Notes: generated from the letters alone by a model not told the origin. 64,000 bases of DNA from an uncultured archaeon (GCA_964480705.1 CAYZPC010000001.1:31297-95296); one strand, 5' to 3'. Counted from the stretch's first letter, positions 18,398 through 63,801 are shown. Program-made: numbers and translations.

Positions 18398-18469
18398 TGG
18401 ACCCGGGAGGGGTTGAACCTCCGACCTTCGCTGTATAAGAACGCTGCTCTACCACTGAGCTACGGGTCC
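18398..18469 (-). tRNA. tRNA, probable tRNA-Ile (anticodon TAT) with G27.A43 mismatch
   Basis: RC: GGACCCG-TA-GCTC-AGTGGTA-GAGC-A-GCGTT-CTTATAC-AGCGA-AGGTC-GGAGG-TTCAACC-CCTCC-CGGGTCC-A. Confidence 0.6.
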
Positions 18470-23218: not shown

Positions 23219-23333
23219 TGAATGTTCCTCCCATTCTATGTACGTAATACACGCCAAAAGCGGTTTTAAACCCTTCCCGAATGAGGCGCAAAGCAAGGTT
23301 TTTTATGCGCAAAAAAGGTCGTTTGAGTTGATT

Positions 23334-26300
23334 ATGCGCTGGTTTATTTTTGGTTTGATTTTGGTGAGTTTTTCCTCGCTTGCCTGGGCGCAAGTACTGG
23401 GTGGTGAACCCGATTTTGGTTCGGCTCCTGCCAACACGACCATTAATTCTAGTCCGGCTCCCATTGGGGGTTTTCTCTCTTTTTACTCCTCATGTCAAGA
23501 TGGCGTGTTCATGCGCAGCGTCGTGTGCGATTCTCCTTCGTGTGATGTGTCTTCTCCTTCCCTCTGTTCTTCCACTTTTTCTTCTACCGCAAGTAAATCG
23601 TGCGCCGCTCCCACAACTGTTTCAGATTGGGGGTATCATTTTCTCGTGAATTCAGCGTGCTGCAATGCGCAAAATAATTGTACGCTTCAGCAAACCACCG
23701 ATCCCTGGTTGGTGGGAGTGGAACCTTTTCCGGTGAGTACACAGATGGTGGATGTTTCCGGAATGGATCCCCGCGGGAATAAGTTGGCTCGTCGTTCGTA
23801 TTCGAGTTGGGTTTCGGTCTTCAACACATCTTCGGATGCAAAAATTTCCACCACCACTGACGCTGGTCTCACGTGGTCGAGTCCTCTTTCCATCAAATCA
23901 CTTTTTTCTCAAGCTCAATTGCCATTGGGTGTGAGTTATTCGTCTGTGCGCGTCGTTAATCCTGCGCTTGCGGTTGGAAATAATTCCGTTGAACTTGTTT
24001 TTGAAGTGGTGGACACTTCTGGAAAAAGCAACGTGTATTATTCTCACTGCGTCTCTTCTGCTTGTTCGAATGCAGCTGCGTGGTCGCTGGCTGTTCCCGT
24101 TCTCGATCCCATTGTCACGGAAACAAATCCCGGTGCGGCCGATTCAACATGGATGTATTCACTTGGTTCCCCTAAAATTGGAATCACTTCCTCTTCCATC
24201 GTGCATGTTATTTTTGATGACTCTCAAACGAATCCTTCGCTTCGCATTCAGGGAATTTTTCACCGGTATTGTTCTCTCGTTGACGGGTGTGACAAAGTAT
24301 CTGCGTGGAATGCTTCCACGAATGGGACGGATATTTTAGGGGGAGTCAATAACGGATACCCCCGCTCGCCTCACCTTTCCATTAGTTCAAAGGGCGTGTT
24401 TGCCATATGGATGGATTATTCTTCTTCCGGAAACCCGTCTTCAAATAGCATCTTTGTCTCCCTCTACGCAATTCCAACCAACACGTGGCTTTCTCCCGTT
24501 TCGGTTGGGAGCGCGAGTAGTTTTTCATTCCCCTGGATTTCGGCCGCTGGTAATCGCGCCGGAATTTCCGCGCTTTCTGGAAGCACCGTGCGCGTGTGGA
24601 ATTGTGATTCTTCCTGCATGAGTTCTCCTTCAACTCCAACGGCGTGGTCGGATGTTTCCTCCACTTTTTCTCCATTCAACACACTCACTTCCCTCTCCGA
24701 AGTTGCCATCGCAATTTCTCCTCTTGACTCGAGTGAATCCGTGCTGTTGGCTGCTGGAAACTTGGCGGGAAACAGACAATTATTTGGAATGTACTCTCGC
24801 GCGGGGGGCATCACGACAACTCTTCGCCGCATTTCCAACACTCCCACTTCATTCACTTTTACAGGATTGTCTGATGTGAGTGGAAATTTTTTGTGGAGCA
24901 GTCAACCTTTTTTGCAGTGGGCCGGCGCCACTCCAACAAGTGGTTCGGTTTATTCATCTAATGTTTTTTCATCAAACAATGCATTTCCATCCATCACTAT
25001 TACCGCGCCCACCACTCCCGTCACGTGGCAGTCAGCAAGTTCTTCCGCGTACTCTCAAACAATCACCTTCACCGCGCAGGATAATGATATTGAAGATGAA
25101 TTGTATGCGTCCATTTACTTTGGCACATCGCCCAACACCACCACTTATTTGCTTCGTGACCGCGTGGATTTGAAAACACTTCAAGGGACACAGAGCACTG
25201 ACACGTGTGCATCCGGTTCTTTTACGTCTCCCCGCACGTGCGTGTTGAACTTGCCCCTTTTCGATCCCGCCACGGGCTTGTTAGCTCCGAATGGAAATTA
25301 TTATTTGGTTGCTGTTCTCGCGGATTCAAAATCAGGGAGTGATGTTTTTTCCACTCCCAATCAAGTGACTTTTTCTCTCCCTTCCGGGACGATTTCCATT
25401 GCCGCACCCACTGCTGGCTCGTCGTGGTCGGGTCCGGGAACGAAACAGTTGGCGGTGGATGTGAATAATCCCCTCTTCTCTCAATTGTTTTCACTCACCC
25501 TTTCTGGCAATTCTCCGAGTGGTTCATTCATGTTTCCCTCGTATCCTGTTTCCTCGTACGGGAGCACTATTCCTCCGTGCGTTAAAGTGGGAAATAATTA
25601 TTCATGCGCGTATCCTATTCTGCCCTCTTCTTCTATTTCAGAAGGAGTGTACGCGTTGTCTCTCGACTCTAGCGTTGATGGCTTGCCCGGCCCCACGGCG
25701 AGCGTGAGTAATATTACGATTGATTTCATTGCCCCGCGCGTGGTCTCGGCGCAGCCGCAAGGCACGCTCACGAGTCCCCCTTCGTCTGTTTCATTTGCCC
25801 TGCAGGATTTTTCTCCCATTGCAACTGTGCCATCCATTCTCATCAATGGTCAGACAGCCACTCCTACTTGTTCATTTGGAGCACAGCCCGTCACGTGTTC
25901 CGCGCCCTTCCCTTCATCCATAACCACGGGCCCGGTCGTGGTTCAAGTAACCGCCTCGGATGCGTTTGGAAATAGTTCTCCGAGTAATTTTTCATTTACC
26001 ATCGATGGTGGAACCACTGTTCCTCCAGGGCCTGGCGGAGAAGGCGGAGGCGGTGGCGGAGGTGGCGGTGGCGGTGGGGGCGGCGGTCCAGGTAAAGTAA
26101 TTCCGCGAGTAGAAGATGTAATCACGCGCGACAGTGAGGGAAATGTTCTCGTGAATGGTACTCCAGTCGTGATTCCCAAAACAATTGTGGAAACTGTGGG
26201 AACATTTTCCAATAATGTGGTCACAGCCACGAGTAATTTGGTTGATGTGGTAGGTCCGAGTGCGCATGCCATATTTTTGGGGTTGTGCGTGATTGCCGGA

Positions 26301-26597
26301 CTGGCATCCGATGTGGTGTTTCGCCGTGTCTTTTCAAAAATTCGCGCGGACACCTATAAGCAGCGCGAGCGTTTGGTCCGAGCCCTCCTCGCGGGAATAT
26401 TTTTCATTATCCCTCTTGCCATTGGCTGGTCTTTTTCACTCGTGGCGGGATTTATTTTCACCGTAATGGAGATTGTGGGGTTTGTCGCTGCCGCATATGC
26501 GATCAAAATTCTCCAATACTATGACACGTTCGGCTACAAGGCCATTCAAGGGGTGGCGTCTGCGATTACTCCCCCGCCCCGACCTCCCTCCATGTGA
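23334..26597 (+). CDS. Giant S/T-rich surface protein with signal peptide, poly-Gly linker and C-terminal TM helices
   Basis: MRWFIFGLILVSFSSLAWA signal; over 1000 aa Ser/Thr/Cys-rich; G18 tract; three C-terminal hydrophobic helices. Confidence 0.7.
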   Translation: MRWFIFGLILVSFSSLAWAQVLGGEPDFGSAPANTTINSSPAPIGGFLSFYSSCQDGVFMRSVVCDSPSCDVSSPSLCSSTFSSTASKSCAAPTTVSDWGYHFLVNSACCNAQNNCTLQQTTDPWLVGVEPFPVSTQMVDVSGMDPRGNKLARRSYSSWVSVFNTSSDAKISTTTDAGLTWSSPLSIKSLFSQAQLPLGVSYSSVRVVNPALAVGNNSVELVFEVVDTSGKSNVYYSHCVSSACSNAAAWSLAVPVLDPIVTETNPGAADSTWMYSLGSPKIGITSSSIVHVIFDDSQTNPSLRIQGIFHRYCSLVDGCDKVSAWNASTNGTDILGGVNNGYPRSPHLSISSKGVFAIWMDYSSSGNPSSNSIFVSLYAIPTNTWLSPVSVGSASSFSFPWISAAGNRAGISALSGSTVRVWNCDSSCMSSPSTPTAWSDVSSTFSPFNTLTSLSEVAIAISPLDSSESVLLAAGNLAGNRQLFGMYSRAGGITTTLRRISNTPTSFTFTGLSDVSGNFLWSSQPFLQWAGATPTSGSVYSSNVFSSNNAFPSITITAPTTPVTWQSASSSAYSQTITFTAQDNDIEDELYASIYFGTSPNTTTYLLRDRVDLKTLQGTQSTDTCASGSFTSPRTCVLNLPLFDPATGLLAPNGNYYLVAVLADSKSGSDVFSTPNQVTFSLPSGTISIAAPTAGSSWSGPGTKQLAVDVNNPLFSQLFSLTLSGNSPSGSFMFPSYPVSSYGSTIPPCVKVGNNYSCAYPILPSSSISEGVYALSLDSSVDGLPGPTASVSNITIDFIAPRVVSAQPQGTLTSPPSSVSFALQDFSPIATVPSILINGQTATPTCSFGAQPVTCSAPFPSSITTGPVVVQVTASDAFGNSSPSNFSFTIDGGTTVPPGPGGEGGGGGGGGGGGGGGGPGKVIPRVEDVITRDSEGNVLVNGTPVVIPKTIVETVGTFSNNVVTATSNLVDVVGPSAHAIFLGLCVIAGLASDVVFRRVFSKIRADTYKQRERLVRALLAGIFFIIPLAIGWSFSLVAGFIFTVMEIVGFVAAAYAIKILQYYDTFGYKAIQGVASAITPPPRPPSM
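26031..26090 (+). repeat. (GGN)n simple repeat encoding an 18-20 residue poly-glycine tract
   Basis: ggcggagaaggcggaggcggtggcggaggtggcggtggcggtgggggcggcggt. Confidence 0.8.
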
Positions 26598-27065: not shown

Positions 27066-27218
27066 TTCATTCGCGGAGGCGGTTCTCGCCTCTTCTTTTT
27101 CTTTTTTTTGAATTTCATTTTTTCTATTTTTTAAAATAGTTTATTTTTCTCTCATTGTCGTTGTTTTGGTTTTCTCAAAGTGTCCGAATTTTATACTTAT
27201 ACACTACATAATGAGTGT

Positions 27219-27626
27219 ATGAACACACTCCAACTTTTCACCATTGGATTTATTTTCACGTTATTTGCTTCACCTGCGTTTGCGTGGCCGGCTTTTGTAG
27301 CCGACACGTGGAACACCAATCAAGTGTACGCGGGCTCGTATTACGCCCCTTCATCCCCTTATTCGGGCTGGACATACAACGCCTACTACCCTAACTCCGG
27401 CTACCCTGTCATGGGCGGCGGACGCATGTATCCGTATGGGTACAATTCGGGTTCGTACGCGGTTCCCAATTACTATTATGGAACTGGCTACACTGCGTAT
27501 GCTCCTCCTTCCTATCCTGGGCATTATGTGTCAGGAAATTATTACGGAATGCCCGTTCATTCCTCGCTTGAAGTAGGTTTCGGGAATGATAATTTTTACG
27601 TGCGCTGCACCTACTATTCGTGCTGA
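27219..27626 (+). CDS. Secreted Tyr/Gly-rich low-complexity protein
   Basis: Signal MNTLQLFTIGFIFTLFASPAFA; mature part about 30% Tyr with GY/YY/SY repeats. Confidence 0.55.
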   Translation: MNTLQLFTIGFIFTLFASPAFAWPAFVADTWNTNQVYAGSYYAPSSPYSGWTYNAYYPNSGYPVMGGGRMYPYGYNSGSYAVPNYYYGTGYTAYAPPSYPGHYVSGNYYGMPVHSSLEVGFGNDNFYVRCTYYSC

Positions 27627-28087: not shown

Positions 28088-28166
28088 CGTAACTCGTATA
28101 TATTGGTTTCCGCACGGTTTAAATAAAAGATAGGCCCATATTCTTATTATTCACATGAATTAGTGA

Positions 28167-28766
28167 ATGAGCCTTCCCATGTCTACCAAAGCACGTATTC
28201 CCAATGGCGCCAAGCTCATTATTATCGTCTTGAGCTTCTTTCTCGCCCTCACGTTTGTGCGTGCGGTCACTCTACAAGCCGACTCTCAAGAGGTTGTTTT
28301 TTCAGGTTCGCAATCTATTGTGTTTCCCGTTTCGGTGACGAACCCCACTAATTCACCCGTCATTCCTAACTTTTTAGCGGACGGACCATTCACTATTATT
28401 CTTCCTTCCGATAACGCCCCCATTCCTGCGAACGATTCCAAATCGTATGCGTTACAATTTTTCCCCGCCTCCACATTCAAAGTGGGAGATGTGTATGCTG
28501 GACAGTTGCGCGTAATTACGGGCGATGGTGAAACAGCCCTTCCTCTCACTTTTCGCATGAACCCCGCTCCCTTGTTCAACAACCCTTCCAATCTTTCGGC
28601 GCCAGTTTCCCCTACGGGATTCTTTTCGTTTGCCTCATTGTTCAATTTGTCCTTTTTTTCATCCCTTTCAATTGTGGATGTTTTCTTGGTGGTTATTGTC
28701 ATTGTTCTTACCGTTGCACTTGTTGCGCGTATCAAGAATAGATTGATTGGGGAGGAAAAATCATGA
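28167..28766 (+). CDS. Surface protein 1 of a three-gene operon (signal peptide plus C-terminal TM)
   Basis: Signal LIIIVLSFFLALTFVRAVT; C-terminal helix VFLVVIVIVLTVALVA. Confidence 0.6.
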   Translation: MSLPMSTKARIPNGAKLIIIVLSFFLALTFVRAVTLQADSQEVVFSGSQSIVFPVSVTNPTNSPVIPNFLADGPFTIILPSDNAPIPANDSKSYALQFFPASTFKVGDVYAGQLRVITGDGETALPLTFRMNPAPLFNNPSNLSAPVSPTGFFSFASLFNLSFFSSLSIVDVFLVVIVIVLTVALVARIKNRLIGEEKS

Positions 28767-30559
28767 ACACACTCTTGAAAGTTCTTGCATTCATTGCCGC
28801 GGTGTTATTTGTCGCGCCTGCGGTGCACGCCATTCCCTACACTGCTTCCTTTACTTCTCCCTCAGCCGTCTCGCTTCTCGAGAATATGTCGGTTTCTATT
28901 CCCCTTGAAATTCAAAACAATGATTTTCAGTCTCATACGGTTACATTGTCCGGTTTCTCCGATGAAGCAACCGTGAAAATTATCCCCAATTTGAAAACAT
29001 TCACCATTGCGCCCTATGAAAAAGTCACGGTTGGAATTACTGTGCGCGCCACCGATGATGCCGACCATGAAACGGTTCCCGCCCGAGTGCGAGTCAGTTT
29101 AGATGGTGACACGCGCGATGTTCCCCTCACAGTTTATGTGGGTTCCAATCCCTTCCTCACGCTCACGACATTCAATTCTACCGTGTGCGCCAATGAGTAT
29201 GTGGAAAGTATTTCTGTTTTAGTGGAAAATCGCACGAGCGCTGACACTCAAGTAACATTGCGCGCCGAGCAATCCATTTTGCTTCCCTTCACGGAAGAAG
29301 AAACCCTCACGTTAGAGAATGGAATTGAACAATTTGTCACCTTCCGCGTGAACGTTTCCCCTGCGAATGCGGGTAAATACACGGGAACCATTTTCGCGGA
29401 CACGAATCAAATCGTGGTGGTGCGTCCATTCGTTGTGAGTGTAAATGATTGCCCCGAAACGGTGGAGAAAACCATTTCTCTCAAATTGCCCACGAAAGTG
29501 TATGATTTAACCAAATTGAAAACCACGAATGTTCCTCTTTCGGTGAAAAACCTCACCGATGAAGCACAGTTTGTGGAATTCTTTGTGGACACGGACATGG
29601 GGTACACGCTCAATAGCATCACCATTGCCCCCCGCGACACGGCTAACATTAATCTCTCCCTCACTCCCGACACGAGTATTCCCGCGGGAAAGAAAGCCAT
29701 CACCATTACAGCCATTGCCGGCGGGTATCGCATTGCGCAATCGTTGAATGTGAATGTGCTTCCTTTGGATTTGTTAGAGTTGGAAAACGTTTCCTCCATT
29801 TACACGCTCTTTGAGGGAGATTCATCCTCAATGGATTTCATCGTGCACAATCGCGGAGATTCATCTCAAAGCATTTCATTGGGAATGCAGTCCAGCGTCT
29901 CCGATATCACATCCACTTTTACCCCTGCGAATGTGACCGTGTCACCCGGAAAGTCCGTGCGTGTCCAACTCACACTCACTGCGAATGAACACGTTTCGGT
30001 GACGCGCGTGAATACTTCTATTGTTGCGAATGGAAACAAGTCCAGTGCCACTCTTCCCTTGTCCTATGTAGTGGAACCCAACCCCACTGCCTTAGAAGGG
30101 GCATTGAAGTTTGTGAGCATTCCAAAAGAAATCTCCCTGAACGCAGACGAACAGAAAGAAATCACCATTACGTTGCGCAACGAGTCCGACACTGCCATTA
30201 CGGGCGTTCGCTTCCGCTTGTTGGGAGTGAGCGGCGCTAACATTAGTGTTGTGGGCCCTGCCTCCGCCACGTTGGCACCGTATGAGACGCAATCCTTCAC
30301 GTTACGTGTTGTCACACAAGAAGACACTCCTTCCGGAGTCTATTCTCCTATTCTCATCGCGCAGGGCGACAACGGCTCCGGCCGCGCTCCCATGAGTATT
30401 CGCGTGAATGATGGTTTCGTGAATGGACTCTTGACGGGTTTAGTCACGTTTGCCAATGAGCGTGCGGGAATTTTGGGTTTCATTGTTCTCGTGATTCTCG
30501 CGGGATATTATATTTTTTCCCGCTCCGAGAAACGCTCTCCTGTTTGGACGGCGAAATAG
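28763..30559 (+). CDS. Surface protein 2 (598 aa, signal peptide, repeated beta-rich domains, C-terminal TM)
   Basis: Start overlaps the upstream stop by 4 nt; MNTLLKVLAFIAAVLFVAPAVHA; C-terminal GILGFIVLVILAGYYIF. Confidence 0.65.
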   Translation: MNTLLKVLAFIAAVLFVAPAVHAIPYTASFTSPSAVSLLENMSVSIPLEIQNNDFQSHTVTLSGFSDEATVKIIPNLKTFTIAPYEKVTVGITVRATDDADHETVPARVRVSLDGDTRDVPLTVYVGSNPFLTLTTFNSTVCANEYVESISVLVENRTSADTQVTLRAEQSILLPFTEEETLTLENGIEQFVTFRVNVSPANAGKYTGTIFADTNQIVVVRPFVVSVNDCPETVEKTISLKLPTKVYDLTKLKTTNVPLSVKNLTDEAQFVEFFVDTDMGYTLNSITIAPRDTANINLSLTPDTSIPAGKKAITITAIAGGYRIAQSLNVNVLPLDLLELENVSSIYTLFEGDSSSMDFIVHNRGDSSQSISLGMQSSVSDITSTFTPANVTVSPGKSVRVQLTLTANEHVSVTRVNTSIVANGNKSSATLPLSYVVEPNPTALEGALKFVSIPKEISLNADEQKEITITLRNESDTAITGVRFRLLGVSGANISVVGPASATLAPYETQSFTLRVVTQEDTPSGVYSPILIAQGDNGSGRAPMSIRVNDGFVNGLLTGLVTFANERAGILGFIVLVILAGYYIFSRSEKRSPVWTAK

Positions 30560-30568
30560 TGCGAAAGG

Positions 30569-32062
30569 GTGATGGATTACATGAGTAAGCGTTGGGCGCA
30601 GCCTTCAACACGCTCCACTCCGGAGTTATTCATTAAGCGCAGCCTCATTCGACCGGTGCACGTCATGCTGATCCTCGCGGGAATGGCGTTGCTTCTTTCC
30701 GCGGCGCAGATGCACGCGTACACACCTTCTTCCACTGCCATTTTCTCATCTGTTTCAACGCAGGAATTATTTCTCCAGCCCGATTCGGAGTTGCCCGTGG
30801 ATATTTTCGTCAACACCCCGTATGGGAAACCCGTGAATGTTTCTTTTTCCACTGATTACCCTTCGCACGTATTGCGTGTCGATGGAGAATTGCATTCCAT
30901 TTCCACGTCTTTTCCGTTGCAACGCGAGATGCGCGTGTATGCGAATTGGAACGCTCCGCAGGGAGATTATTTAGTTACCTTGCGCGTGCACGTGCAAGAT
31001 GGTGGACAATCTTTCACTGAAACCCACCCCATTCGTGTTCACGTTGGAGAAAAGGGTTTGCTCACGTACTACACCACATCCAACACTACCCTTCCCGCGC
31101 GTGTTTCCGCGCCCATTTTTTCCACGAATGCCATTAATCTCTCCCGCACCGAGCGCACCACCGTTTCGGTTTCATTTCTCAATACGGGTTCCTCGACTGA
31201 TTATTTGGTTCGTCTCGCCGAACCCTCGTTGAATTTGCTTGTTCACGTGGTGAATGAAACCCATCGCCTCGTGGAAGACGGTTCGCGTGTCACATCTTGG
31301 TTGGATATTACGGCGCGCACGAATACTCCCTTTGGTGAAACTCCCTTGTATGTGGAAGCATACAATATGGTTTCCGGAGAAAAAACTCTTTTGGGCGTTG
31401 TCCGTGTGAATGTGTATGAGACATTCAACCTTGACGCGCGATTGCCTTTTCACTCATTTGTCGTTGAAGAGAATGATTTGATTGAAACCACTCTCTCGCT
31501 TGAAAATACGGAATACTCGGATGTGGATGTCATCATCGAGTCGAGTTCCTCACTCGCTCAGCCTGCCAATTCAACCATTCGTGTTCCGGCAAAAACTTCT
31601 ATTACCGTTCCTCTGTCCATTCACGCTTCCCCCTCACTGGGTGTGCGCGGCGACACATTGTATGTGATGAACCCCAATCTCACCGAGCAGGTTTCTTTTA
31701 CGGTTGAAACGGTTCCCCGCGGCACGTTGAAACCCATTGTTTCGGATGAGAATGCGAGAGGAAATGGTTCTCCTTTCACTCCAATTTCTGGCTTTGTTTC
31801 AGGAGTTTTTTCATCCGTGTGGGGATTGGTAATTATTGCGCTCGCCGGGTTGATTATTTTCTCTCAAAAATTTAGAGAGGGTGTCGTGGCTCGTTTGCCC
31901 AAGCCGGTTCCTCCTGCTAAAGCGCCTCCGGTTCCTAAACCGTCTTCACTTCCCGCACCATCTGCTCCTGCGCCCGTCCCATCCGCGCCTGCTCCAGGAA
32001 TTGTTTCAAATGTTCCTGTTCCCACTTCCAAAACGGATGCGACGCCGGCACAAAATAATTAA
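30569..32062 (+). CDS. Surface protein 3 (signal/anchor, C-terminal TM plus Pro-rich tail)
   Basis: VHVMLILAGMALLLSAA N-terminal helix; C-terminal VWGLVIIALAGLIIF then PKPVPPAKAPPVPKPSS. Confidence 0.6.
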   Translation: MMDYMSKRWAQPSTRSTPELFIKRSLIRPVHVMLILAGMALLLSAAQMHAYTPSSTAIFSSVSTQELFLQPDSELPVDIFVNTPYGKPVNVSFSTDYPSHVLRVDGELHSISTSFPLQREMRVYANWNAPQGDYLVTLRVHVQDGGQSFTETHPIRVHVGEKGLLTYYTTSNTTLPARVSAPIFSTNAINLSRTERTTVSVSFLNTGSSTDYLVRLAEPSLNLLVHVVNETHRLVEDGSRVTSWLDITARTNTPFGETPLYVEAYNMVSGEKTLLGVVRVNVYETFNLDARLPFHSFVVEENDLIETTLSLENTEYSDVDVIIESSSSLAQPANSTIRVPAKTSITVPLSIHASPSLGVRGDTLYVMNPNLTEQVSFTVETVPRGTLKPIVSDENARGNGSPFTPISGFVSGVFSSVWGLVIIALAGLIIFSQKFREGVVARLPKPVPPAKAPPVPKPSSLPAPSAPAPVPSAPAPGIVSNVPVPTSKTDATPAQNN

Positions 32063-32086: not shown

Positions 32087-34018
32087 TTATTTTCGATAAC
32101 TAGTCGCAATGCCCTCATCTAAGCATGAGAGGCACGACACTAAGTTGCTGCACACAGTGGTACAGTCTTTTTCGAGTTTGAAGTTTGGAATGGCCATTTG
32201 GTAAATGTGGCTTGCATTAATGTTGCTTGTTTTATCGGTGGTTAATTTTTCTGTGCTCAAAGAAAAATTGAATTTGTATTCTTTGTATCCGCGGATTTTG
32301 AGAACGGCTTGATACTCTCCTGGGTAAATAGGATTGTATTCCTGCAATTCCGTTGGTTTTCCATTCGGGTCGCGTTTACTTACGGCTGCAGCTGTTGTCA
32401 AATATTTTCCAGGGTTGGCTTGGTTGAACAACAATCCCTCATATGCTTTGTCGCGTGTCGTCGCTGGTTCATTTGCTTCAGGCTGTTGGAGTGGTTCGGC
32501 CAACCAGGATGTTCGGTCATTCACATGAATGAGTTCAAGTGTCATCATGTCATGAATGGCATCATTCGAGAGGCGATCATCCGTGTTGGGGTCGTTGTCC
32601 GGGTCGTTTAATTCAGGATTATTTTTGCGTAATACGTTGAGCGTGTCATTCGTGAGTTTAAATCGGAAAATGTCTTTGGAAGGGTCTTCGCTTGCTTTGA
32701 TGCGCACGGTTTGAATAGTGTCTTCGGTTCCCGGCACGTTGGTTTGTTTGATGCGGTACAACACCGTGATTTTTCCGCGCTGGGATGAGAGGAACGTGGC
32801 TTTGTAATCAAGCACGCTGGCTAATGGAGTAATGTCTCCGAAATCGGCTAAAATTTCTTTGCTGTGAGTGACTGTTTTCCAATAGGGAACAAATGTTCCA
32901 TTTTCCGCGGCACATAATCGCATTCCAAGAGTGAGTTTTCCCATTCCGGGTAAATTTACAATTTTATTGGACGCGTATTCTTTCGTAGTGTTGGGGTGCG
33001 CGGTGTTGTATGCATCTACTGCTCCCGTAATCGTACTAACCGGTTGTCCAATGTCGGTTCCAAACAATCCGACCGTTTGAATGGTTGTATAAATATCAAT
33101 TCCTTGTCCTATTAAATTGCGAAAAATATCCCATCCAATACTTTGTACGGTGTCAATGCGCGACGCGACACTTGCGGCAATGGTTTCATTATTGTTGAAG
33201 TGCCAAATTTGCAGCAAATAAACAGCGTTTCCTTTTGAATCTTGGAAAATAATATTTCTCGGGCTTAGTGCATATTCGGATGTCGTTGTAGTGGAGATTT
33301 TCTCATCCAAGTCTGCTCCCCCTTCGCGAAATTCAGGAGAGGAATCTCCTAATGTAATGAATTGGGGCGCGTCATTTCCAATTTCACAATATTCATTCAA
33401 CACCGGCGTTGCTTCCGCCACTTGCTGAGCAGTGGGTGTTGCGGTTGGAGCGGTGGGTGTGGTCGTTCCGGGCGTGGATGGATTTACTGCTTGTAACACG
33501 GGCAAGCTTGCTTCGAGTTTAGGCAAAAAATCCGTTGCCATGTAGGCTCCTTCCGTGTCATCGAGCTGGCAATCGCTGTTTGATAATAATCCTGAGAAGC
33601 TCATGTTGCTTGATTCTAATTCCGATTCATAATCTAATGCATACTGCGCCGAGAACGCGTCCCACACGCTGGTTTCACAATCAATCGCAGAATAGGTGTC
33701 TCCAATTTTAACGTAAACAATTCCTTCCGTGTTATCCGTTTCTTCTTCCACAAAGAGATACGTGTTGTTAATGGTTGGATCTGCTCCTTCGGTGAAAATG
33801 AATGCTTGTTGTCCGGCTAAATCGCGCATTTTTCTCAATAGGGGAACAACATTGTCTCCTGATGAGAGCGCGGGAATATTTTTTCCCCCAATGCTTTCTT
33901 GTCGAATAACCGTGTATCCTCCGCTGCCCTGTGCTTCGGAGTCGGTGGCATAAAAGAGGAATAACCCCCCTACTACGAGTGTTAGAATGATTCCGGCGGC
34001 GAGATAATGGGGTTGCAT
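32087..34018 (-). CDS. Large N-terminally anchored extracellular protein (643 aa)
   Basis: MQPHYLAAGIILTLVVGGLFLFYATDSEA; T/P-rich linker; no recognisable catalytic motif. Confidence 0.6.
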   Translation of the reverse strand: MQPHYLAAGIILTLVVGGLFLFYATDSEAQGSGGYTVIRQESIGGKNIPALSSGDNVVPLLRKMRDLAGQQAFIFTEGADPTINNTYLFVEEETDNTEGIVYVKIGDTYSAIDCETSVWDAFSAQYALDYESELESSNMSFSGLLSNSDCQLDDTEGAYMATDFLPKLEASLPVLQAVNPSTPGTTTPTAPTATPTAQQVAEATPVLNEYCEIGNDAPQFITLGDSSPEFREGGADLDEKISTTTTSEYALSPRNIIFQDSKGNAVYLLQIWHFNNNETIAASVASRIDTVQSIGWDIFRNLIGQGIDIYTTIQTVGLFGTDIGQPVSTITGAVDAYNTAHPNTTKEYASNKIVNLPGMGKLTLGMRLCAAENGTFVPYWKTVTHSKEILADFGDITPLASVLDYKATFLSSQRGKITVLYRIKQTNVPGTEDTIQTVRIKASEDPSKDIFRFKLTNDTLNVLRKNNPELNDPDNDPNTDDRLSNDAIHDMMTLELIHVNDRTSWLAEPLQQPEANEPATTRDKAYEGLLFNQANPGKYLTTAAAVSKRDPNGKPTELQEYNPIYPGEYQAVLKIRGYKEYKFNFSLSTEKLTTDKTSNINASHIYQMAIPNFKLEKDCTTVCSNLVSCLSCLDEGIATSYRK

Positions 34019-40830: not shown

Positions 40831-40952
40831 AATTTACTTGTGAAACGTAGAGATAAAATCCTATGTTTTATTTTTTTCGGCGGTTTACCTTCCGCCCGTT
40901 TTTATTCAGTTTATTCGTGTTCGTTTCGCACTCACTTTTGGAGGTCGTTTCT

Positions 40953-41801
40953 ATGGATCAAAAAGATGCGTTGGTTGTTTTTCAAGATACAAAAATTAGG
41001 AGAATATTACATAATAATGAATGGTTTTTTTCAGTCGTAGACGTGGTTGGTGCTTTGACAGATAGTCCAACGCCCCGACAATACTGGGGCAAAGTAAAGG
41101 ATAGGGAGTTCAACGAGATTCAGTTGTCCCCAATTTGGGTACAACTGAAATTACCTTCTTCGGACGGCAAACTATACGAAACCGACTGCGCCAACACCCA
41201 AAACATGTTCCGCATCATCCAATCCATCCCTTCTCCCAAAGCCGAGCCCTTCAAACAATGGTTAGCCAAAGTAGGCTATGAGCGCGTGAAAGAAATTGAA
41301 AACCCTGAATTAGCCCAAGCGCGCATGGTCGAAACCTACCGCGCGAAAGGATATTCCAATGAGTGGATTGAAAGACGTCTGCGTGGCATTGCCGTGCGGG
41401 ACGATTTGACGAATGAGTGGAAAAAACGCGATGTGAAAGAGGGAGTGGAGTTTGCCATCCTCACGGCGGAAATTTCTTCCGCCACATTCGGAATGACTCC
41501 AACCGAATACAAGGATTTCAAGGGGTTGAAAAAAGAAAACTTGCGCGACCACATGAATGATTTGGAGTTAATTTTTACCATGCTCGGAGAAGCATCCACT
41601 GCACACGTTGCGCGTGGAAAAGACGCGCAGGGTTTTGTTGAGAACCAGCAGGCCGCCGTGGTGGGTGGAACGATTGCAGGGAATGCGCGAAAGGAATTGG
41701 AAAATAAAAGTGGAGAAAAGATTTCCACATCTGAAAATTATCTTTCTGTTCCTGAGAGTCAGAAGCGTTTGGAGCGCTCGGCTAAAAAACACATTGAGTG
41801 A
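40953..41801 (+). CDS. Bro-N / DinD-like (DNA-damage-inducible protein D family) protein
   Basis: N-terminus IRRILHNNEWFFSVVDVVGAL fits Bro-N; C-terminal NEWKKRDVKEGVEFAILTAEISSATFGMTPTEYKDFKGL block. Confidence 0.55.
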   Translation: MDQKDALVVFQDTKIRRILHNNEWFFSVVDVVGALTDSPTPRQYWGKVKDREFNEIQLSPIWVQLKLPSSDGKLYETDCANTQNMFRIIQSIPSPKAEPFKQWLAKVGYERVKEIENPELAQARMVETYRAKGYSNEWIERRLRGIAVRDDLTNEWKKRDVKEGVEFAILTAEISSATFGMTPTEYKDFKGLKKENLRDHMNDLELIFTMLGEASTAHVARGKDAQGFVENQQAAVVGGTIAGNARKELENKSGEKISTSENYLSVPESQKRLERSAKKHIE

Positions 41802-56864: not shown

Positions 56865-59432
56865 CTAATCGTCTTTCCAAATTTTTTTCTTAGTTGGAGC
56901 GTTTTCTTTTTTGGCAAAATTAATGGGCTTTTTCTCGCGGAGCTTTTGTTCAAGCTTGCTTCCAATGGGTGCTCCTCCCACAATTTTAGATGCAATTTTT
57001 TGGCTGGCGCTCATTTTTCCGCTTACGAGCATGCTCGATTCTTTTTTCTCAGACTTGGGTGCAGGCTTTGGAAGAGAAGGGAGTTTGAATGCTGGAAGTT
57101 TGAGTAATGGTTTTGACGCGGATGTTTCCACGCGCACGGGTGATTTATTTGAAATAGTTGGAAGTGCCAGTTTAACTTTTCCCGTTTTCACGAGGTAAAA
57201 CAAAACGCCCCCACCCACAATTAGTCCAACAATAATGAATCCGGCTAAAAAGTAGGGGTTGCTTGTGAAAGGGTTTGGTTTTCCACTCGCATTCACATCG
57301 CTGTTCAAGTCCACTGCCGAAGTGGCTTGCATGTAAATCTGCACATTGTTTCCCGGAGCATATGTTACGGCTTCCGATGCAATTCCGCGTTGGGGAATAT
57401 TTGCCAACGCTTGATATTTTCCCGCGTCCGCAATGTCAAACAAACAGTACCCATTCGCGTCCGTGGTGCACGTTCCTACGGTCGCGCACTGGTTTTTGAT
57501 TTGGGGAATGTTGTTGGCTAGTGATGCAAATGACCCTGCGCACACATTTCCATATTCAATGAAAACAATTTCCACGTTTCCTATTCCTGAGTTGTCCACA
57601 TTATTGAGCTGCACTTCAATTCCCGCATCATCTATTTTTCCATTGCAGTCATTGTCTAAATTATCTTCGTTTTCCGTTGCACCCGGGTATATTTTGTCGC
57701 TGTTATCATTGCAGTCTTTTGGTACTGCACACGTGGACACGCCATCGTCGTCTTCATCAAATCCATTGTCTACTTTTCCATTACAATCATTATCCACTGC
57801 GTCGCACACTTCACTTGCTCCAGGGTGAACAGCGGCATCGTTGTCATTGCAGTCAAATTTAACCGTGTCTTTGGCACAAACCCCGTCGATGTATCCATCT
57901 CCATCATTGTCCACACATTCTTCGCATCCCACGGTGATGATTTTCCACGCATCGGCCGCAGCGGATACTGCGAGAATGTTATTGTTAGGGTCAGACGCGA
58001 GCGCGTTGGCAATTTTTCCATCTAATTCGCTGGGGAAAAAGTTATCCGCTTTGTCAAACAATGCATATGCTTGCTGCTGGAGTCTTCGTTCCATTGTTTC
58101 TTCGCTTTCCACGCACGATGCGCGGAGGAAAACGTGTCCAAGCATGAGCTGCGCAAATGCTCTTCCTTCCGTGTCAATGGAGTAGCTCGCATACTTGAGT
58201 AAATCACCATTGCGCGAGAGCCCTGATCCCGCGTCATCTTCCTCTAAAACGAGCAATGATTGCACAGCCTTTTTGAAATTGGTATTTTCAGTGTAAATTT
58301 TTGGATTCGATTTTTGAAGTAAATGAAGAGTCACACTCATGTCGGTAATGAATCCTTTCGTCTCACCCACTGCCACATACGCAGGATAGGCTTCATACGC
58401 TGCACTTCCATCATCCGGGGTGCAATTGTTGGGATTGATCCCTGCTCCTTCCCAGCGCATGTAATCCTTGTATGTGCCATCGCATTCTTGCAGGGCGAGC
58501 ATTCCTTTTTCGGCAATTCGAGCAGCGCGGGAATATTTAGTGTCTCCCGTTTCCTTTGCTAGCGCGTCCCAAAATAGAATCGTTTGCGCCATGTGTGTTT
58601 TTCGGCTTTCGTGGAGTTTGATATTTCCCCCATCCGTGCACAATTCGGTGTCTGCTGAATCCGTTTGAATGATGAATTGATACGGCATCAATCCCACTGG
58701 AATAGTGTGCCCATACGTATCGGCTGTTTTGGAGGAAGGTATTCCAAATGTTTCTCCTTCTTCCACTACAATCGCGTCGAGGAGCATGTTTCCAATTCCC
58801 GTGGCAATTTTCATGTAATCATTTTTTCGCGTAGAGTCAAAATCGGCTGCGCGCAAAAACAAATATCCCGCTCCTGCGAGCGTGGAGAGTTGTGCCTGTG
58901 TTTGTTTGTTGATGGTGTCCTTGGGCACGCCCCACGTGTTGAATGCAATGCTTTCGTCTTTCATGCACGCATTACTCGTTGCGTTTATTCCCAAAATGGA
59001 TGGGAGAACATTTGCAATTCCATTGTTGGGAAGTTTTTCTTTGTGTCCCGTTCCAAATGTTTCCGTGTTGGGAGTCCACACCCAGGGAAGGGTTTGCGTG
59101 GCAACGTGTGTGATTTTGCTGGACAATCCATCATTCAAATCCAATCCCGCGAGCTGCGGGTTGAGGAGTGTGTCCATTCCAATAATATACAAGCCAATTT
59201 TTCCAAATTCGTTTGAGTTGTCAAAAAAATCGACATCATCAATGGAGAATTGCGATTGGGGCAAATCATACACGCTTCCCCATCCCCGCGTGTTGTGGGA
59301 GGTGACAAATCCTCTCTCCACCATGTTTTCGAGCGTATCATCCAGCCCATCAGGCGGCGTTTCAGCCAGTGCAAAGGTAAGCGGAGATAGCCCAGCGAGA
59401 AGCAGAATTGACAATAGCACTCGCTTCCACAT
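56865..59432 (-). CDS. Large surface protein with MopE-like putative metal-binding repeats and C-terminal TM plus Lys-rich tail
   Basis: Signal peptide; CVDNDGDGYIDGVC..DCNDNDAAVHP..DNDCNGKVDNGFDEDDDG repeats; TM FLAGFIIVGLIVGGGVLFYLV. Confidence 0.7.
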   Translation of the reverse strand: MWKRVLLSILLLAGLSPLTFALAETPPDGLDDTLENMVERGFVTSHNTRGWGSVYDLPQSQFSIDDVDFFDNSNEFGKIGLYIIGMDTLLNPQLAGLDLNDGLSSKITHVATQTLPWVWTPNTETFGTGHKEKLPNNGIANVLPSILGINATSNACMKDESIAFNTWGVPKDTINKQTQAQLSTLAGAGYLFLRAADFDSTRKNDYMKIATGIGNMLLDAIVVEEGETFGIPSSKTADTYGHTIPVGLMPYQFIIQTDSADTELCTDGGNIKLHESRKTHMAQTILFWDALAKETGDTKYSRAARIAEKGMLALQECDGTYKDYMRWEGAGINPNNCTPDDGSAAYEAYPAYVAVGETKGFITDMSVTLHLLQKSNPKIYTENTNFKKAVQSLLVLEEDDAGSGLSRNGDLLKYASYSIDTEGRAFAQLMLGHVFLRASCVESEETMERRLQQQAYALFDKADNFFPSELDGKIANALASDPNNNILAVSAAADAWKIITVGCEECVDNDGDGYIDGVCAKDTVKFDCNDNDAAVHPGASEVCDAVDNDCNGKVDNGFDEDDDGVSTCAVPKDCNDNSDKIYPGATENEDNLDNDCNGKIDDAGIEVQLNNVDNSGIGNVEIVFIEYGNVCAGSFASLANNIPQIKNQCATVGTCTTDANGYCLFDIADAGKYQALANIPQRGIASEAVTYAPGNNVQIYMQATSAVDLNSDVNASGKPNPFTSNPYFLAGFIIVGLIVGGGVLFYLVKTGKVKLALPTISNKSPVRVETSASKPLLKLPAFKLPSLPKPAPKSEKKESSMLVSGKMSASQKIASKIVGGAPIGSKLEQKLREKKPINFAKKENAPTKKKIWKDD

Positions 59433-63330: not shown

Positions 63331-63801
63331 TTATTTCTCTACGCGAACAAACACGCTAGTTTGATATGTTTTTTCTCCAATTTTCGCGCTCACATCCACG
63401 CGATAGGTTCCAGGAAAAAAAGGCGTTGATGCTGCATCAACTGGCGAAATCAAAAACTCGAGTTTGCGCGTTTCTTGCGGTCCAAGCGTTTGAATCGTCA
63501 ATTTTTCCGGGTACAAACTAAGTTGTTCCGACCCCGGCGCGGCGAGGGAAACCACCACATTGCTTACGGAAGCATTCGCGGGGTTCGTGACCAATACTTC
63601 TAGCATCGTGGAATCGTTTCCAGACAAGGAGAGGGGGTTTTGTTTCAACTCTGCGTGCAAGGCGTTAAACGTCTGCGTCGTGAAGACAAGGACAAGAATG
63701 GCCAATACTACTATTGCCAGCAGCGGCTTAGCCACTCCGGAGAGGGGTCCTAAATCAATGTCGAGAGGGTTGCTCTGATATACCTTCATACTCTCAACCA
63801 A
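63331..63801 (-). CDS. N-terminally anchored extracellular protein, beta-rich
   Basis: TM LLAIVVLAILVLVFT. Confidence 0.5.
   Translation of the reverse strand: MVESMKVYQSNPLDIDLGPLSGVAKPLLAIVVLAILVLVFTTQTFNALHAELKQNPLSLSGNDSTMLEVLVTNPANASVSNVVVSLAAPGSEQLSLYPEKLTIQTLGPQETRKLEFLISPVDAASTPFFPGTYRVDVSAKIGEKTYQTSVFVRVEK

Follow-up and report, generated by a model that had tools for sequence, protein, structure and literature searches.

The closest described counterparts of the genes analysed here are archaeal multi-Ig membrane proteins (CARDB/NEW3, i.e. Pfam NPCBM_assoc, or FixG_C-like), which have a signal peptide, tandem Ig domains with a strand-B Asn, a single C-terminal transmembrane (TM) helix and no known function. 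In the Sulfolobales, SlaA and SlaB form a co-transcribed two-component S-layer with a membrane stalk. Substrates of archaeosortase A are Ig-rich surface glycoproteins whose C-terminal PGF-CTERM signal consists of a Gly plus aromatic/Leu motif, a TM segment and basic residues. Donor-strand fibres (chaperone-usher pili, archaeal threads, bundling pili and cannulae) have membrane-free mature subunits that lack the last strand of their fold, which is completed by a neighbour's N-terminal donor, and chaperone/usher or equivalent genes lie nearby; sortase-assembled pili have an LPXTG-type signal and a sortase gene. The putative secretion system associated with arCOG01314 (Makarova et al. 2015, PMC5898192) includes Ig-like "S-layer" proteins of three families.

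The locus described here is an operon of an Iainarchaeum-type archaeon (Diapherotrites, DPANN), and lies in a 64-kb stretch of DNA that was analysed as a whole (the window). A preliminary description had reported co-directional genes of 199, 598 and 497 aa, the first two overlapping by 4 nt, and the ORF list agrees (Table 1; the overlap is ATGA). Its placement of gene 3 at 10 nt after gene 2 is right as to the tight packing, but the spacer in the ORF list is 9 nt and the true start is probably the ATG at 30581, giving a protein of 493 aa, because the Met at that position (M5 of the ORF) is invariant in the alignment, six of the eight homologues begin with it and a Shine-Dalgarno-like site lies 7 nt upstream. 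Gene 1 may have an alternative start at ATG 28179, as in a 195-aa database copy (P0015). A Shine-Dalgarno-like site for gene 2 within the end of gene 1 indicates translational coupling, so the three products are probably made together. A putative TATA-box-like element, TTTAAATA, which resembles the archaeal consensus TTTAWATA, lies about 40 nt before ATG 28167. All three genes have homologues (14, 16 and 8 homologous clusters for the three genes, the 16 being those of gene 1) and co-occur in other loci examined, and they are therefore genuine genes and not chance ORFs.

Table 1. Coordinates of the three genes and of features within and around them
Feature	Position	Strand	Basis
TATA-box-like element, TTTAAATA, within the 79 nt between gene 1 and the divergent gene upstream	28119..28126	+	sequence
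Gene 1, 199 aa (ATG): N-terminal TM, one Ig-like domain, PTGFFSF-motif linker, C-terminal TM, ARIKNRLIG tail	28167..28766	+	ORF list, hydropathy, alignment
Gene 1 N-terminal hydrophobic segment, residues 13-33, NGAKLIIIVLSFFLALTFVRA	28203..28265	+	conservation
Gene 1 C-terminal TM helix, residues 166-187, followed by cytoplasmic AR-x-KNR-x-x-G motif	28662..28727	+	hydropathy, alignment
GGGGAGG, Shine-Dalgarno-like, 7 nt before gene 2 ATG	28749..28755	+	sequence
Gene 2, 598 aa (ATG): signal peptide, five Ig domains, LLTGLVTF, TM, short tail with invariant W595	28763..30559	+	Pfam, AlphaFold, alignment
Gene 2 pre-TM motif LLTGLVTF, residues 556-563	30428..30451	+	G559 94% conserved
Gene 2 C-terminal TM helix, residues 568-588	30464..30526	+	hydropathy, AlphaFold
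GGGTGAT, Shine-Dalgarno-like, 7 nt before ATG 30581	30567..30573	+	sequence
Gene 3, 497 aa (GTG; probably 493 aa from 30581): N-terminal helix, three Ig-like domains, PISGF-motif linker, TM, FSQKFR...LPKP, Pro-rich tail	30569..32062	+	AlphaFold, alignment, homology
Gene 3 C-terminal TM helix, residues 413-431	31805..31861	+	hydropathy, AlphaFold
Gene 3 Pro-rich disordered tail, residues 444-477, PKPVPPAKAPPVPKPSSLPAPSAPAPVPSAPAPG, predicted cytoplasmic	31898..31999	+	alignment, pLDDT

The five CARDB/NEW3-type Ig domains of the gene 2 protein span about residues 24-128, 129-232, 233-335, 336-440 and 441-550. It matches the Pfam models FixG_C (43.8 bits, cut-off 25.6) and HYDIN_VesB_CFA65-like_Ig (30.9, cut-off 25.5), and its NPCBM_assoc score of 21.0 is slightly below the cut-off of 24.4. 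AlphaFold models five beta-sandwiches (pLDDT 82.6, mostly 80-95 in the domains). Among 81 family members one Asn per domain (N52, N156, N263, N363 and N473) is 90-99% conserved, and the C142/C230 pair is 93% conserved. With its signal peptide, tandem domains each bearing a conserved Asn and one C-terminal TM helix, the protein is of the CARDB/NEW3/FixG_C type. An exhaustive profile search found 686 cluster representatives in its family, whose names are all absent or generic ("uncharacterized membrane protein" in IMG, "NEW3 domain-containing protein" in NCBI/UniRef), and the five-domain architecture is constant over phylum-level distances. The curated model NF033506 (about 627 positions) is roughly collinear with distant family members (P0070, E = 1.7e-13; P0060, E = 8e-9), but these relatives reach only 50 bits against a cut-off of 110, two of the 15 orthologues match at E = 0.0088 and the window protein has no match. 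NF033506 is named "putative S-layer protein", and the S-layer role in that name is itself only predicted.

The gene 3 protein is modelled with three Ig-like beta-sandwiches (about residues 58-160, 178-284 and 288-382; pLDDT 66.6). The Pro-rich tail, noticed before and called cytoplasmic, is found after the TM helix and a basic cluster, and is therefore predicted to lie on that side of the membrane. Only its start, LPKPxPPxK, is conserved (invariant columns L443, P444, K445 and P449); the tail has 18% identity versus 47% for the juxtamembrane stretch, and its pLDDT is below 50. Relatives of gene 3 range from 351 to 1032 aa, and since they are variable, with extra Ig domains or (in locus L022) a VWA domain, this protein is a candidate for the outward-facing or adhesive member. 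The N-terminal hydrophobic segment of gene 1 has 70% mean pairwise identity across 11 Iainarchaeia loci, compared with 29% for its own Ig domain and 30% for the gene 2 signal peptide; because it is the best-conserved part of the protein, it is probably a retained signal-anchor and not a cleaved signal. The AR-x-KNR-x-x-G motif of gene 1 is also present in the Micrarchaeota-type loci L017, L021 and L023.

Judged from their sequences, the three products are paralogues of one another, a point absent from the preliminary description. Gene 1 matches, as a paralogue, the final domain and anchor of both gene 2 (97%, E = 9e-11) and gene 3 (96.6%), and gene 3 is homologous to gene 2 (99.5%, E = 2e-22; HMM E = 2.7e-18). 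We note that a further single-Ig paralogue stands alone in the window at 63331-63801. As had been proposed, each product is rich in T, S and V and is hydrophobic near both ends: hydropathy gives a single N-terminal segment and a single TM-like C-terminal one (residues 17-35 and 169-187 in gene 1, 3-21 and 568-586 in gene 2, and 25-50 and 413-431 in gene 3). Structure prediction had been suggested as a search for Ig/CARDB-like repeats; AlphaFold and Pfam do show Ig beta-sandwiches. Genes 1, 2 and 3 encode one, five and three complete CARDB/NEW3-type domains, respectively, and structure searches return only PapD/ASH/MSP/FixG-type Ig chains. The three proteins share a C-terminal module in which a [TSA]-G-[LF] motif stands between a membrane-proximal Ig domain and a single TM helix, with a basic juxtamembrane stretch behind the helix. 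Beyond this module each has its own conserved cytoplasmic motif at the 16 loci that have the trio (gene 1, KNR-x-x-G; gene 2, W595; gene 3, LPKP). In the window's proteins the [TSA]-G-[LF] motif, which is not an established signature, is 8-12 residues away from the TM helix; this motif and the protein-specific cytoplasmic ones were seen over these loci and about 140 family members. The ectodomains have pI values of 4.2-5.0, and the three proteins contain 3, 13 and 7 N-X-S/T sequons. The earlier view of the operon is supported: its genes are transcribed together and coupled in translation, and they encode beta-rich surface proteins that are secreted and anchored at the C terminus.

Fifteen other distinct loci that have all three genes show the same order, with gene 1-gene 2 spacings of -4 to +7 nt over the 16 loci. 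They belong to Ca. Iainarchaeum/Diapherotrites and to contigs of the type seen in Micrarchaeota. Within the Iainarchaeia synteny adds little alone because the entire 17-20 kb block is collinear there; the Micrarchaeota-type contigs (L017 and L021-L023) have a different neighbourhood, with MetK and HTH-CBS genes on one side of the trio and TrmB on the other. The conserved unit argues against the possibility, raised in the preliminary description along with the synteny comparison, that the proteins are unrelated singletons. A more distant lineage (L024) has genes 1 and 2 only, so a trimer is not universal. Across the compared loci identity is 31-67% for the trio, 58-85% for XPD and 72-87% for KaiC; the trio evolves faster than its cytoplasmic neighbours, yet is never lost.

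What sets gene 2 apart from other archaeal multi-Ig proteins is that it belongs to a constant pair or trio of paralogues, in which the pre-TM motif is common to all and the cytoplasmic motif differs between subunits. The trio has no ABC transporter or other partner genes nearby. Like SlaA and SlaB, it consists of surface proteins transcribed together, among them a C-terminally anchored one that could carry an outer layer, but in sequence and domains it is unrelated to SlaA/SlaB and PF05123, and all three of its subunits are anchored and paralogous. The arCOG01314 system similarly encodes several distinct Ig-domain membrane or secreted archaeal proteins together (PMC5898192), some of them two-TM proteins with an extracellular Ig domain, the topology predicted for Iainarchaeia gene 1. 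Its partners (a DUF4350 protein, a MoxR ATPase and DUF58/vWA) are absent within about 7-10 kb at the loci examined and among the window ORFs scanned, and the Pfam scan gave no match to DUF1616.

The preliminary description likened the operon to chaperone-usher or sortase-pilus operons, with minor, major and tip subunits of a fibre. Polymerisation of this kind, by donor-strand complementation or sortase, now appears extremely improbable and the idea is largely refuted. All 5 + 3 modelled domains are complete 7-9-strand sandwiches (AlphaFold models, not solved structures), so that the check proposed for donor-strand complementation finds no missing strand, and all subunits retain a conserved TM anchor together with a cytoplasmic motif, unlike membrane-free fibre subunits. 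No LPXTG is visible in the C-terminal regions of the three proteins across the compared loci; PapD/usher families, sortases and chaperones are all absent from the window and from the syntenic loci that were examined. Pfam and NCBIfam scans of the window likewise agree with the earlier remark that no sortase or archaeosortase is nearby. A different use of the C terminus, in which the [TSA]-G-[LF]/TM/basic module is a sorting signal of the PGF-CTERM/PEP-CTERM kind that is cut by an archaeosortase-like enzyme and leaves the proteins lipid-attached, strikes us as decidedly unlikely. The tripartite layout is there in all three proteins at 16 loci and in about 140 family members, the motif of family members often abuts the TM helix directly (e.g., LAGLFALG), and the full name of the related model NF033506 (PACE-CTERM-PROT) includes "CTERM". 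However, the motif is not PGF and is 8-12 residues before the TM helix in the window's proteins, which give no match to PGF-/PEF-/VPXXXP-CTERM models at E up to 10, and the 64-kb window contains no Exosortase_EpsH match or polytopic protein of archaeosortase size. W595, KNR-x-x-G and LPKP are moreover conserved beyond the basic cluster, which argues against removal of the tail, since cytoplasmic motifs would be pointless in a discarded piece.

The explanation that we favour, though with no better than even confidence, is that the products of the operon are expressed together and form a glycoprotein scaffold of the envelope, anchored in the membrane and probably hetero-oligomeric. The N-terminal Ig domains of the three paralogues would face outward as acidic rods of one, five and three domains with many N-glycosylation sequons; the subunits would co-assemble by means of the homologous modules next to and within the membrane, giving a membrane-fixed hetero-oligomer projecting roughly 4, 12 and 20 nm from the cell, and this complex would be a structural element, whether as a coat resembling an S-layer or as a pedestal for an outer layer. 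Secretion signals, acidic pI, Ig-like domains, sequons and an anchor are general S-layer traits that are not S-layer-specific, and none of the three proteins matches known S-layer domains (PF05123/PF05124, TIGR01564/TIGR01567, DUF1608). A narrower and rather doubtful proposal makes the 598-aa protein itself the lattice-forming Iainarchaeia S-layer glycoprotein with its own TM anchor, and its paralogues minor lattice or anchoring parts. Its signal peptide, acidic ectodomain, 13 sequons, five Ig-like domains and C-terminal anchor fit such a role, as does the name of the related NF033506; this layout is similar to that of archaeal S-layer proteins built of Ig domains, for example Haloferax csg, and the 64-kb window has no further S-layer candidate with a known domain. 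The low NF033506 scores given above count against it, and Micrarchaeota relatives coexist with a different, proven and highly abundant S-layer protein of the PF05123 type (bioRxiv 10.1101/2021.04.28.441871). That the trio is a DPANN adhesion or host-contact complex with the gene 3 product as adhesin is unlikely: many DPANN are ectosymbionts (PMC11329633), the ectodomains evolve fast and gene 3 varies in length and gains a VWA domain, but the window's proteins have no recognisable ligand-binding domain, and the five-domain constancy of gene 2 is more typical of a structural protein. Co-regulation alone could account for the operon linkage, and Ig-domain surface proteins are numerous in archaeal genomes; with the lone paralogue elsewhere in the window and the absence of gene 3 from L024, this would suit three independent surface proteins that form no complex. 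We find this improbable, as the genes stay in the same order and tightly coupled in two phyla whose neighbourhoods at the locus differ, and each paralogue's distinct conserved cytoplasmic motif speaks for roles that are fixed and not redundant.

DPANN archaea, with their tiny genomes, carry out much of their biology at the cell surface, yet almost nothing is known of how their envelopes are built or anchored. An envelope scaffold of the kind favoured here is a testable candidate for their membrane-anchoring layer, because the gene order is fixed across at least two DPANN phyla, hundreds of family members are unannotated and the related subunits have their own conserved tails. The S-layer protein of a cultured Micrarchaeota, SLP_Mh, is one case in which the module is relevant; it has no clear anchor, and a TM-bearing stalk protein has been raised as one possibility (bioRxiv 10.1101/2021.04.28.441871). 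It is conceivable, if a long shot, that the pair or trio is an obligate, DPANN-specific heteromeric TM complex (Iainarchaeota, Micrarchaeota and relatives) that ties an outer layer to the cytoplasm through its three tails, possibly with an internal signalling or cytoskeletal partner, and is the missing stalk of the anchor-less Micrarchaeota-type S-layer, or else that the [TSA]-G-[LF] module is a new sorting signal. As a candidate anchoring layer, the module also gives a handle by which envelope complexes could be labelled or pulled down in the small number of co-cultures that exist.

The operon is real, conserved and uncharacterised, and it encodes surface proteins. The three co-directional ORFs are present in the ORF list exactly where the preliminary description had placed them (Table), and genes 1 and 2 do overlap, sharing the sequence ATGA; a Shine-Dalgarno-like GGGGAGG lies 7 nt ahead of the gene 2 start. 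Gene 3 was thought to follow closely, and does so with a 9-nt gap if it begins at its GTG, but its true start is more probably ATG 30581, since this Met is invariant among homologues and the first residue in six of eight, and GGGTGAT lies 7 nt upstream. Hydropathy analysis finds the expected single N-terminal and single C-terminal hydrophobic segment in each protein, and the Pro-rich stretch described as a cytoplasmic tail (gene 3 residues 444–477) lies beyond the transmembrane (TM) segment and a basic cluster and is therefore predicted to be on that side of the membrane. Promoter and terminator pattern scans of the operon gave chance-level results, and no RNA families, tRNAs or tandem repeats occur within it.

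Table. Positions of the operon genes, of other features of the window, and of two unusual homologues on Micrarchaeota-type contigs
Feature	Position	Strand	Description
tRNA-Ile	18398-18469	-	anticodon UAU
1119-aa secreted protein	23238-26597	+	Ser-rich (16%); 21 Cys; three C-terminal TM segments; no Pfam family
~17-Gly run of 1119-aa protein	26033-26083		tandem GGN codons
148-aa secreted protein	27180-27626	+	17.6% Tyr; also Gly/Pro/Asn/Ser-rich; without known family
Gene 1	28167-28766	+	199 aa
Gene 1 N-terminal hydrophobic segment	28203-28265		residues 13-33
Gene 2	28763-30559	+	598 aa
Gene 3	30569-32062	+	497 aa
643-aa protein	32087-34018	-	N-terminal TM; no Pfam match; convergent with gene 3
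312-aa protein	40863-41801	+	BRO-N domain (PF02498, E 2e-10)
855-aa protein	56865-59432	-	signal-like N terminus; TM near residue 730; repeated MopE-type putative metal-binding motifs (PF11617, E 7e-17)
Fourth, stand-alone paralogue	63331-63801	-	156 aa; N-terminal TM; one CARDB-like Ig domain; without C-terminal TM
Gene 3 of contig L022	8926-12024		1032 aa; VWA domain
Gene 2 of contig L017	8001-11099		1032 aa; ~450-aa N-terminal extension with His/Asp-rich start

Profile comparisons show that the three proteins are paralogues of one another. Profile-profile alignment matches gene 1 to the last Ig domain, linker and TM segment of gene 2 (97%, E 9e-11) and, with alignments from 16 loci (the window and 15 others that carry all three genes), gene 3 to gene 2 over 403 columns (99.5%, E 2e-22) and gene 1 to the last domain and TM of gene 3 (96.6%); a broad gene 2 family HMM also detects both of the others (gene 3, 2.7e-18; gene 1, 2.2e-8). 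In all three proteins the TM is preceded by a [TSA]-G-[LF] motif, at 16 of 16 loci and in most of ~140 family members. The paralogy falls precisely on the membrane-proximal domain, this motif and the TM; the tails beyond differ, and each is conserved, with AR-x-KNR-x-x-G in gene 1, a C-terminal Trp (W595) invariant in the 15 gene 2 sequences of alignment A1, and in gene 3 either FS-x-KFR...LPK (Iainarchaeia) or a long tail rich in Lys and Glu (other loci). Surface proteins with tandem Ig domains and a C-terminal anchor are already known in archaea; what is new is the paralogous pair or trio with a common anchor module and distinct tails. The fourth paralogue in the window is matched by both the gene 1 HMM (2e-8) and the gene 2 family HMM (1.6e-7).

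Structure prediction bears out the suggestion of Ig-type repeats. In the AlphaFold model of gene 2, made from the family alignment, a signal helix leads into five beta-sandwiches, which a linker joins to a TM helix (pLDDT 82.6). That of gene 3 starts with an N-terminal helix, continues through three beta-sandwiches and a linker to a TM helix, and ends in a disordered tail (pLDDT 66.6); homology to these modelled domains of its paralogues suggests an Ig fold for gene 1 as well. FixG_C and HYDIN/VesB-type Ig domains score above the Pfam cut-offs in gene 2, and NPCBM_assoc (NEW3) falls narrowly under. Across 81 full-length members of the gene 2 family, conservation peaks at a single Asn in each domain (N52, N156, N263, N363 and N473; 90–99%), at the domain 2 Cys pair C142/C230 (93%) and at G559 ahead of the TM (94%). 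The ectodomains are acidic (pI 4.2–5.0), those of genes 1, 2 and 3 contain 3, 13 and 7 N-X-S/T sequons, respectively, and nothing points to an enzyme site; PDB sequence searches with all three family profiles returned only chance-level matches.

The N-terminal hydrophobic segment of gene 1 has a mean identity of 70% across 11 Iainarchaeia loci, compared with 29% for the gene 1 Ig domain and 30% for the gene 2 signal peptide. A cleaved signal peptide is not expected to stay so constant, so the Iainarchaeia gene 1 product is probably a two-TM protein with its Ig domain as an external loop; nucleotide-level constraint beside a divergent promoter may also underlie this conservation. Micrarchaeota-type loci have an ordinary, variable signal peptide at the corresponding position.

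Homologues of all three proteins were found only in uncultured archaea, the named sources being Candidatus Diapherotrites / Ca. Iainarchaeum or Ca. Micrarchaeota, and public data include a copy of gene 1 with 100% identity. Searched for exact matches in public assemblies, the gene 2 protein gave none and the gene 1 protein matched a 4.9-kb contig only. An exhaustive profile search places 686 cluster representatives in the gene 2 family (E <= 1e-3), and 95 of these reach E <= 1e-30. Members are mostly 600–635 aa long and collinear with the query; in the others the same ~560-aa body forms the C-terminal part of a longer protein. In the source records they are called "hypothetical", "uncharacterized membrane protein" or "NEW3 domain-containing protein". 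The literature on PACE-CTERM, COG1470 and NEQ255 yielded nothing of use.

Whether the genes form a unit or are unrelated singletons was the point on which the preliminary description could fall. In the Iainarchaeia a whole 17–20 kb block is collinear around the trio, with genes for thermosome, RIO kinase, a ~1100-aa surface protein, small secreted proteins and a tRNA-editing protein before it and a fast-evolving N-anchored protein, XPD and KaiC after it; because the entire block is collinear, this synteny alone is weak evidence. The Micrarchaeota-type contigs (L017/L018 and L021–L023) are the stronger test, since there the small-large-variable order is kept in another neighbourhood (MetK and HTH-CBS, trio, TrmB), with a gene 1–gene 2 spacing of -4 to +4 nt and a small protein that is matched by the gene 1 profile (5e-13). 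With order and tight coupling kept across such loci and a distinct conserved tail in each member, unlinked surface proteins are an unlikely explanation. A more distant, AT-rich lineage (L024) has a gene 1-like protein adjacent to a gene 2-like one and no third member, so the conserved core is the gene 1/gene 2 pair, which gene 3 has joined in the Iainarchaeota and Micrarchaeota. The most variable member is gene 3 (351–1032 aa), and the trio evolves faster than its cytoplasmic neighbours, yet is always kept.

We note that in L017, L021, L022 and L023 the unit is closely preceded by an HTH_3-CBS regulator, with 1–4 intervening genes in L017, L021 and L022, and that in these last three it is followed by a TrmB-family regulator; both lineages have a gene with a tRNA-editing domain close to the unit. 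The 1119-aa protein is conserved ahead of the trio in every Iainarchaeia locus (30–51% identity), and the Tyr-rich 148-aa protein, kept in the syntenic block at 34–69% identity, may belong to a matrix or serve in adhesion. The 643-aa protein evolves much faster than its neighbours (20–43% identity) and is often alignable only at its C terminus. Farther away, the 855-aa protein is, from its predicted features, another large surface protein. BRO-N domains are common in viruses and mobile elements, and the 312-aa protein may thus mark an integrated element. Because AUA is read in most archaea by a modified CAU anticodon, the tRNA-Ile(UAU) is perhaps notable.

The proposed likeness to minor-major-tip fibres or pili fails on every feature testable here: the modelled Ig domains are complete, contrary to donor-strand complementation, every subunit keeps its own anchor and conserved cytoplasmic motif, and no LPXTG or PGF signal scores, so that a pilus is most implausible. 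No usher, chaperone, sortase or archaeosortase was found in the scanned window ORFs or the gene tables of 12 related loci, in agreement with the earlier statement that no sortase or archaeosortase is nearby; the Pfam scan covered the trio, six neighbours and 30 further window ORFs of ~190 aa or more, and none of 29 unannotated or unscanned window ORFs has more than three TM-like segments by hydropathy. The trio might instead be substrates of a hypothetical C-terminal sorting enzyme, but the conserved tails past the basic cluster weaken the idea, which we consider quite unlikely. The arCOG01314 "secretion system" includes Ig-like S-layer-type proteins (PMC5898192); membership was rejected because its defining genes are all absent nearby.

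We infer that the unit is a structural, probably glycosylated envelope scaffold, either an S-layer-like coat or a pedestal beneath one. Because the genes are translationally coupled, their products are probably made together, and the three would assemble at the membrane into a fixed hetero-oligomer; the coupling, the shared membrane-proximal paralogy and the distinct tails fit this better than three interchangeable adhesins, and a host-adhesion complex seems improbable. At an estimated ~4 nm per Ig domain, the ectodomains would reach ~4, 12 and 20 nm. The name of the related NCBIfam model NF033506, "putative S-layer protein", is a curated but untested label that points to the same envelope role, but membership fails on score. 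That the gene 2 product is the S-layer protein proper is rather unlikely. Micrarchaeota have a proven S-layer protein of another family without a clear anchor, for which a TM stalk protein was among the anchoring options listed by its authors (bioRxiv 10.1101/2021.04.28.441871). Orthologues of the trio are candidates for that stalk, and the operon is chiefly of value for the testable lead it gives on how DPANN envelopes are built.
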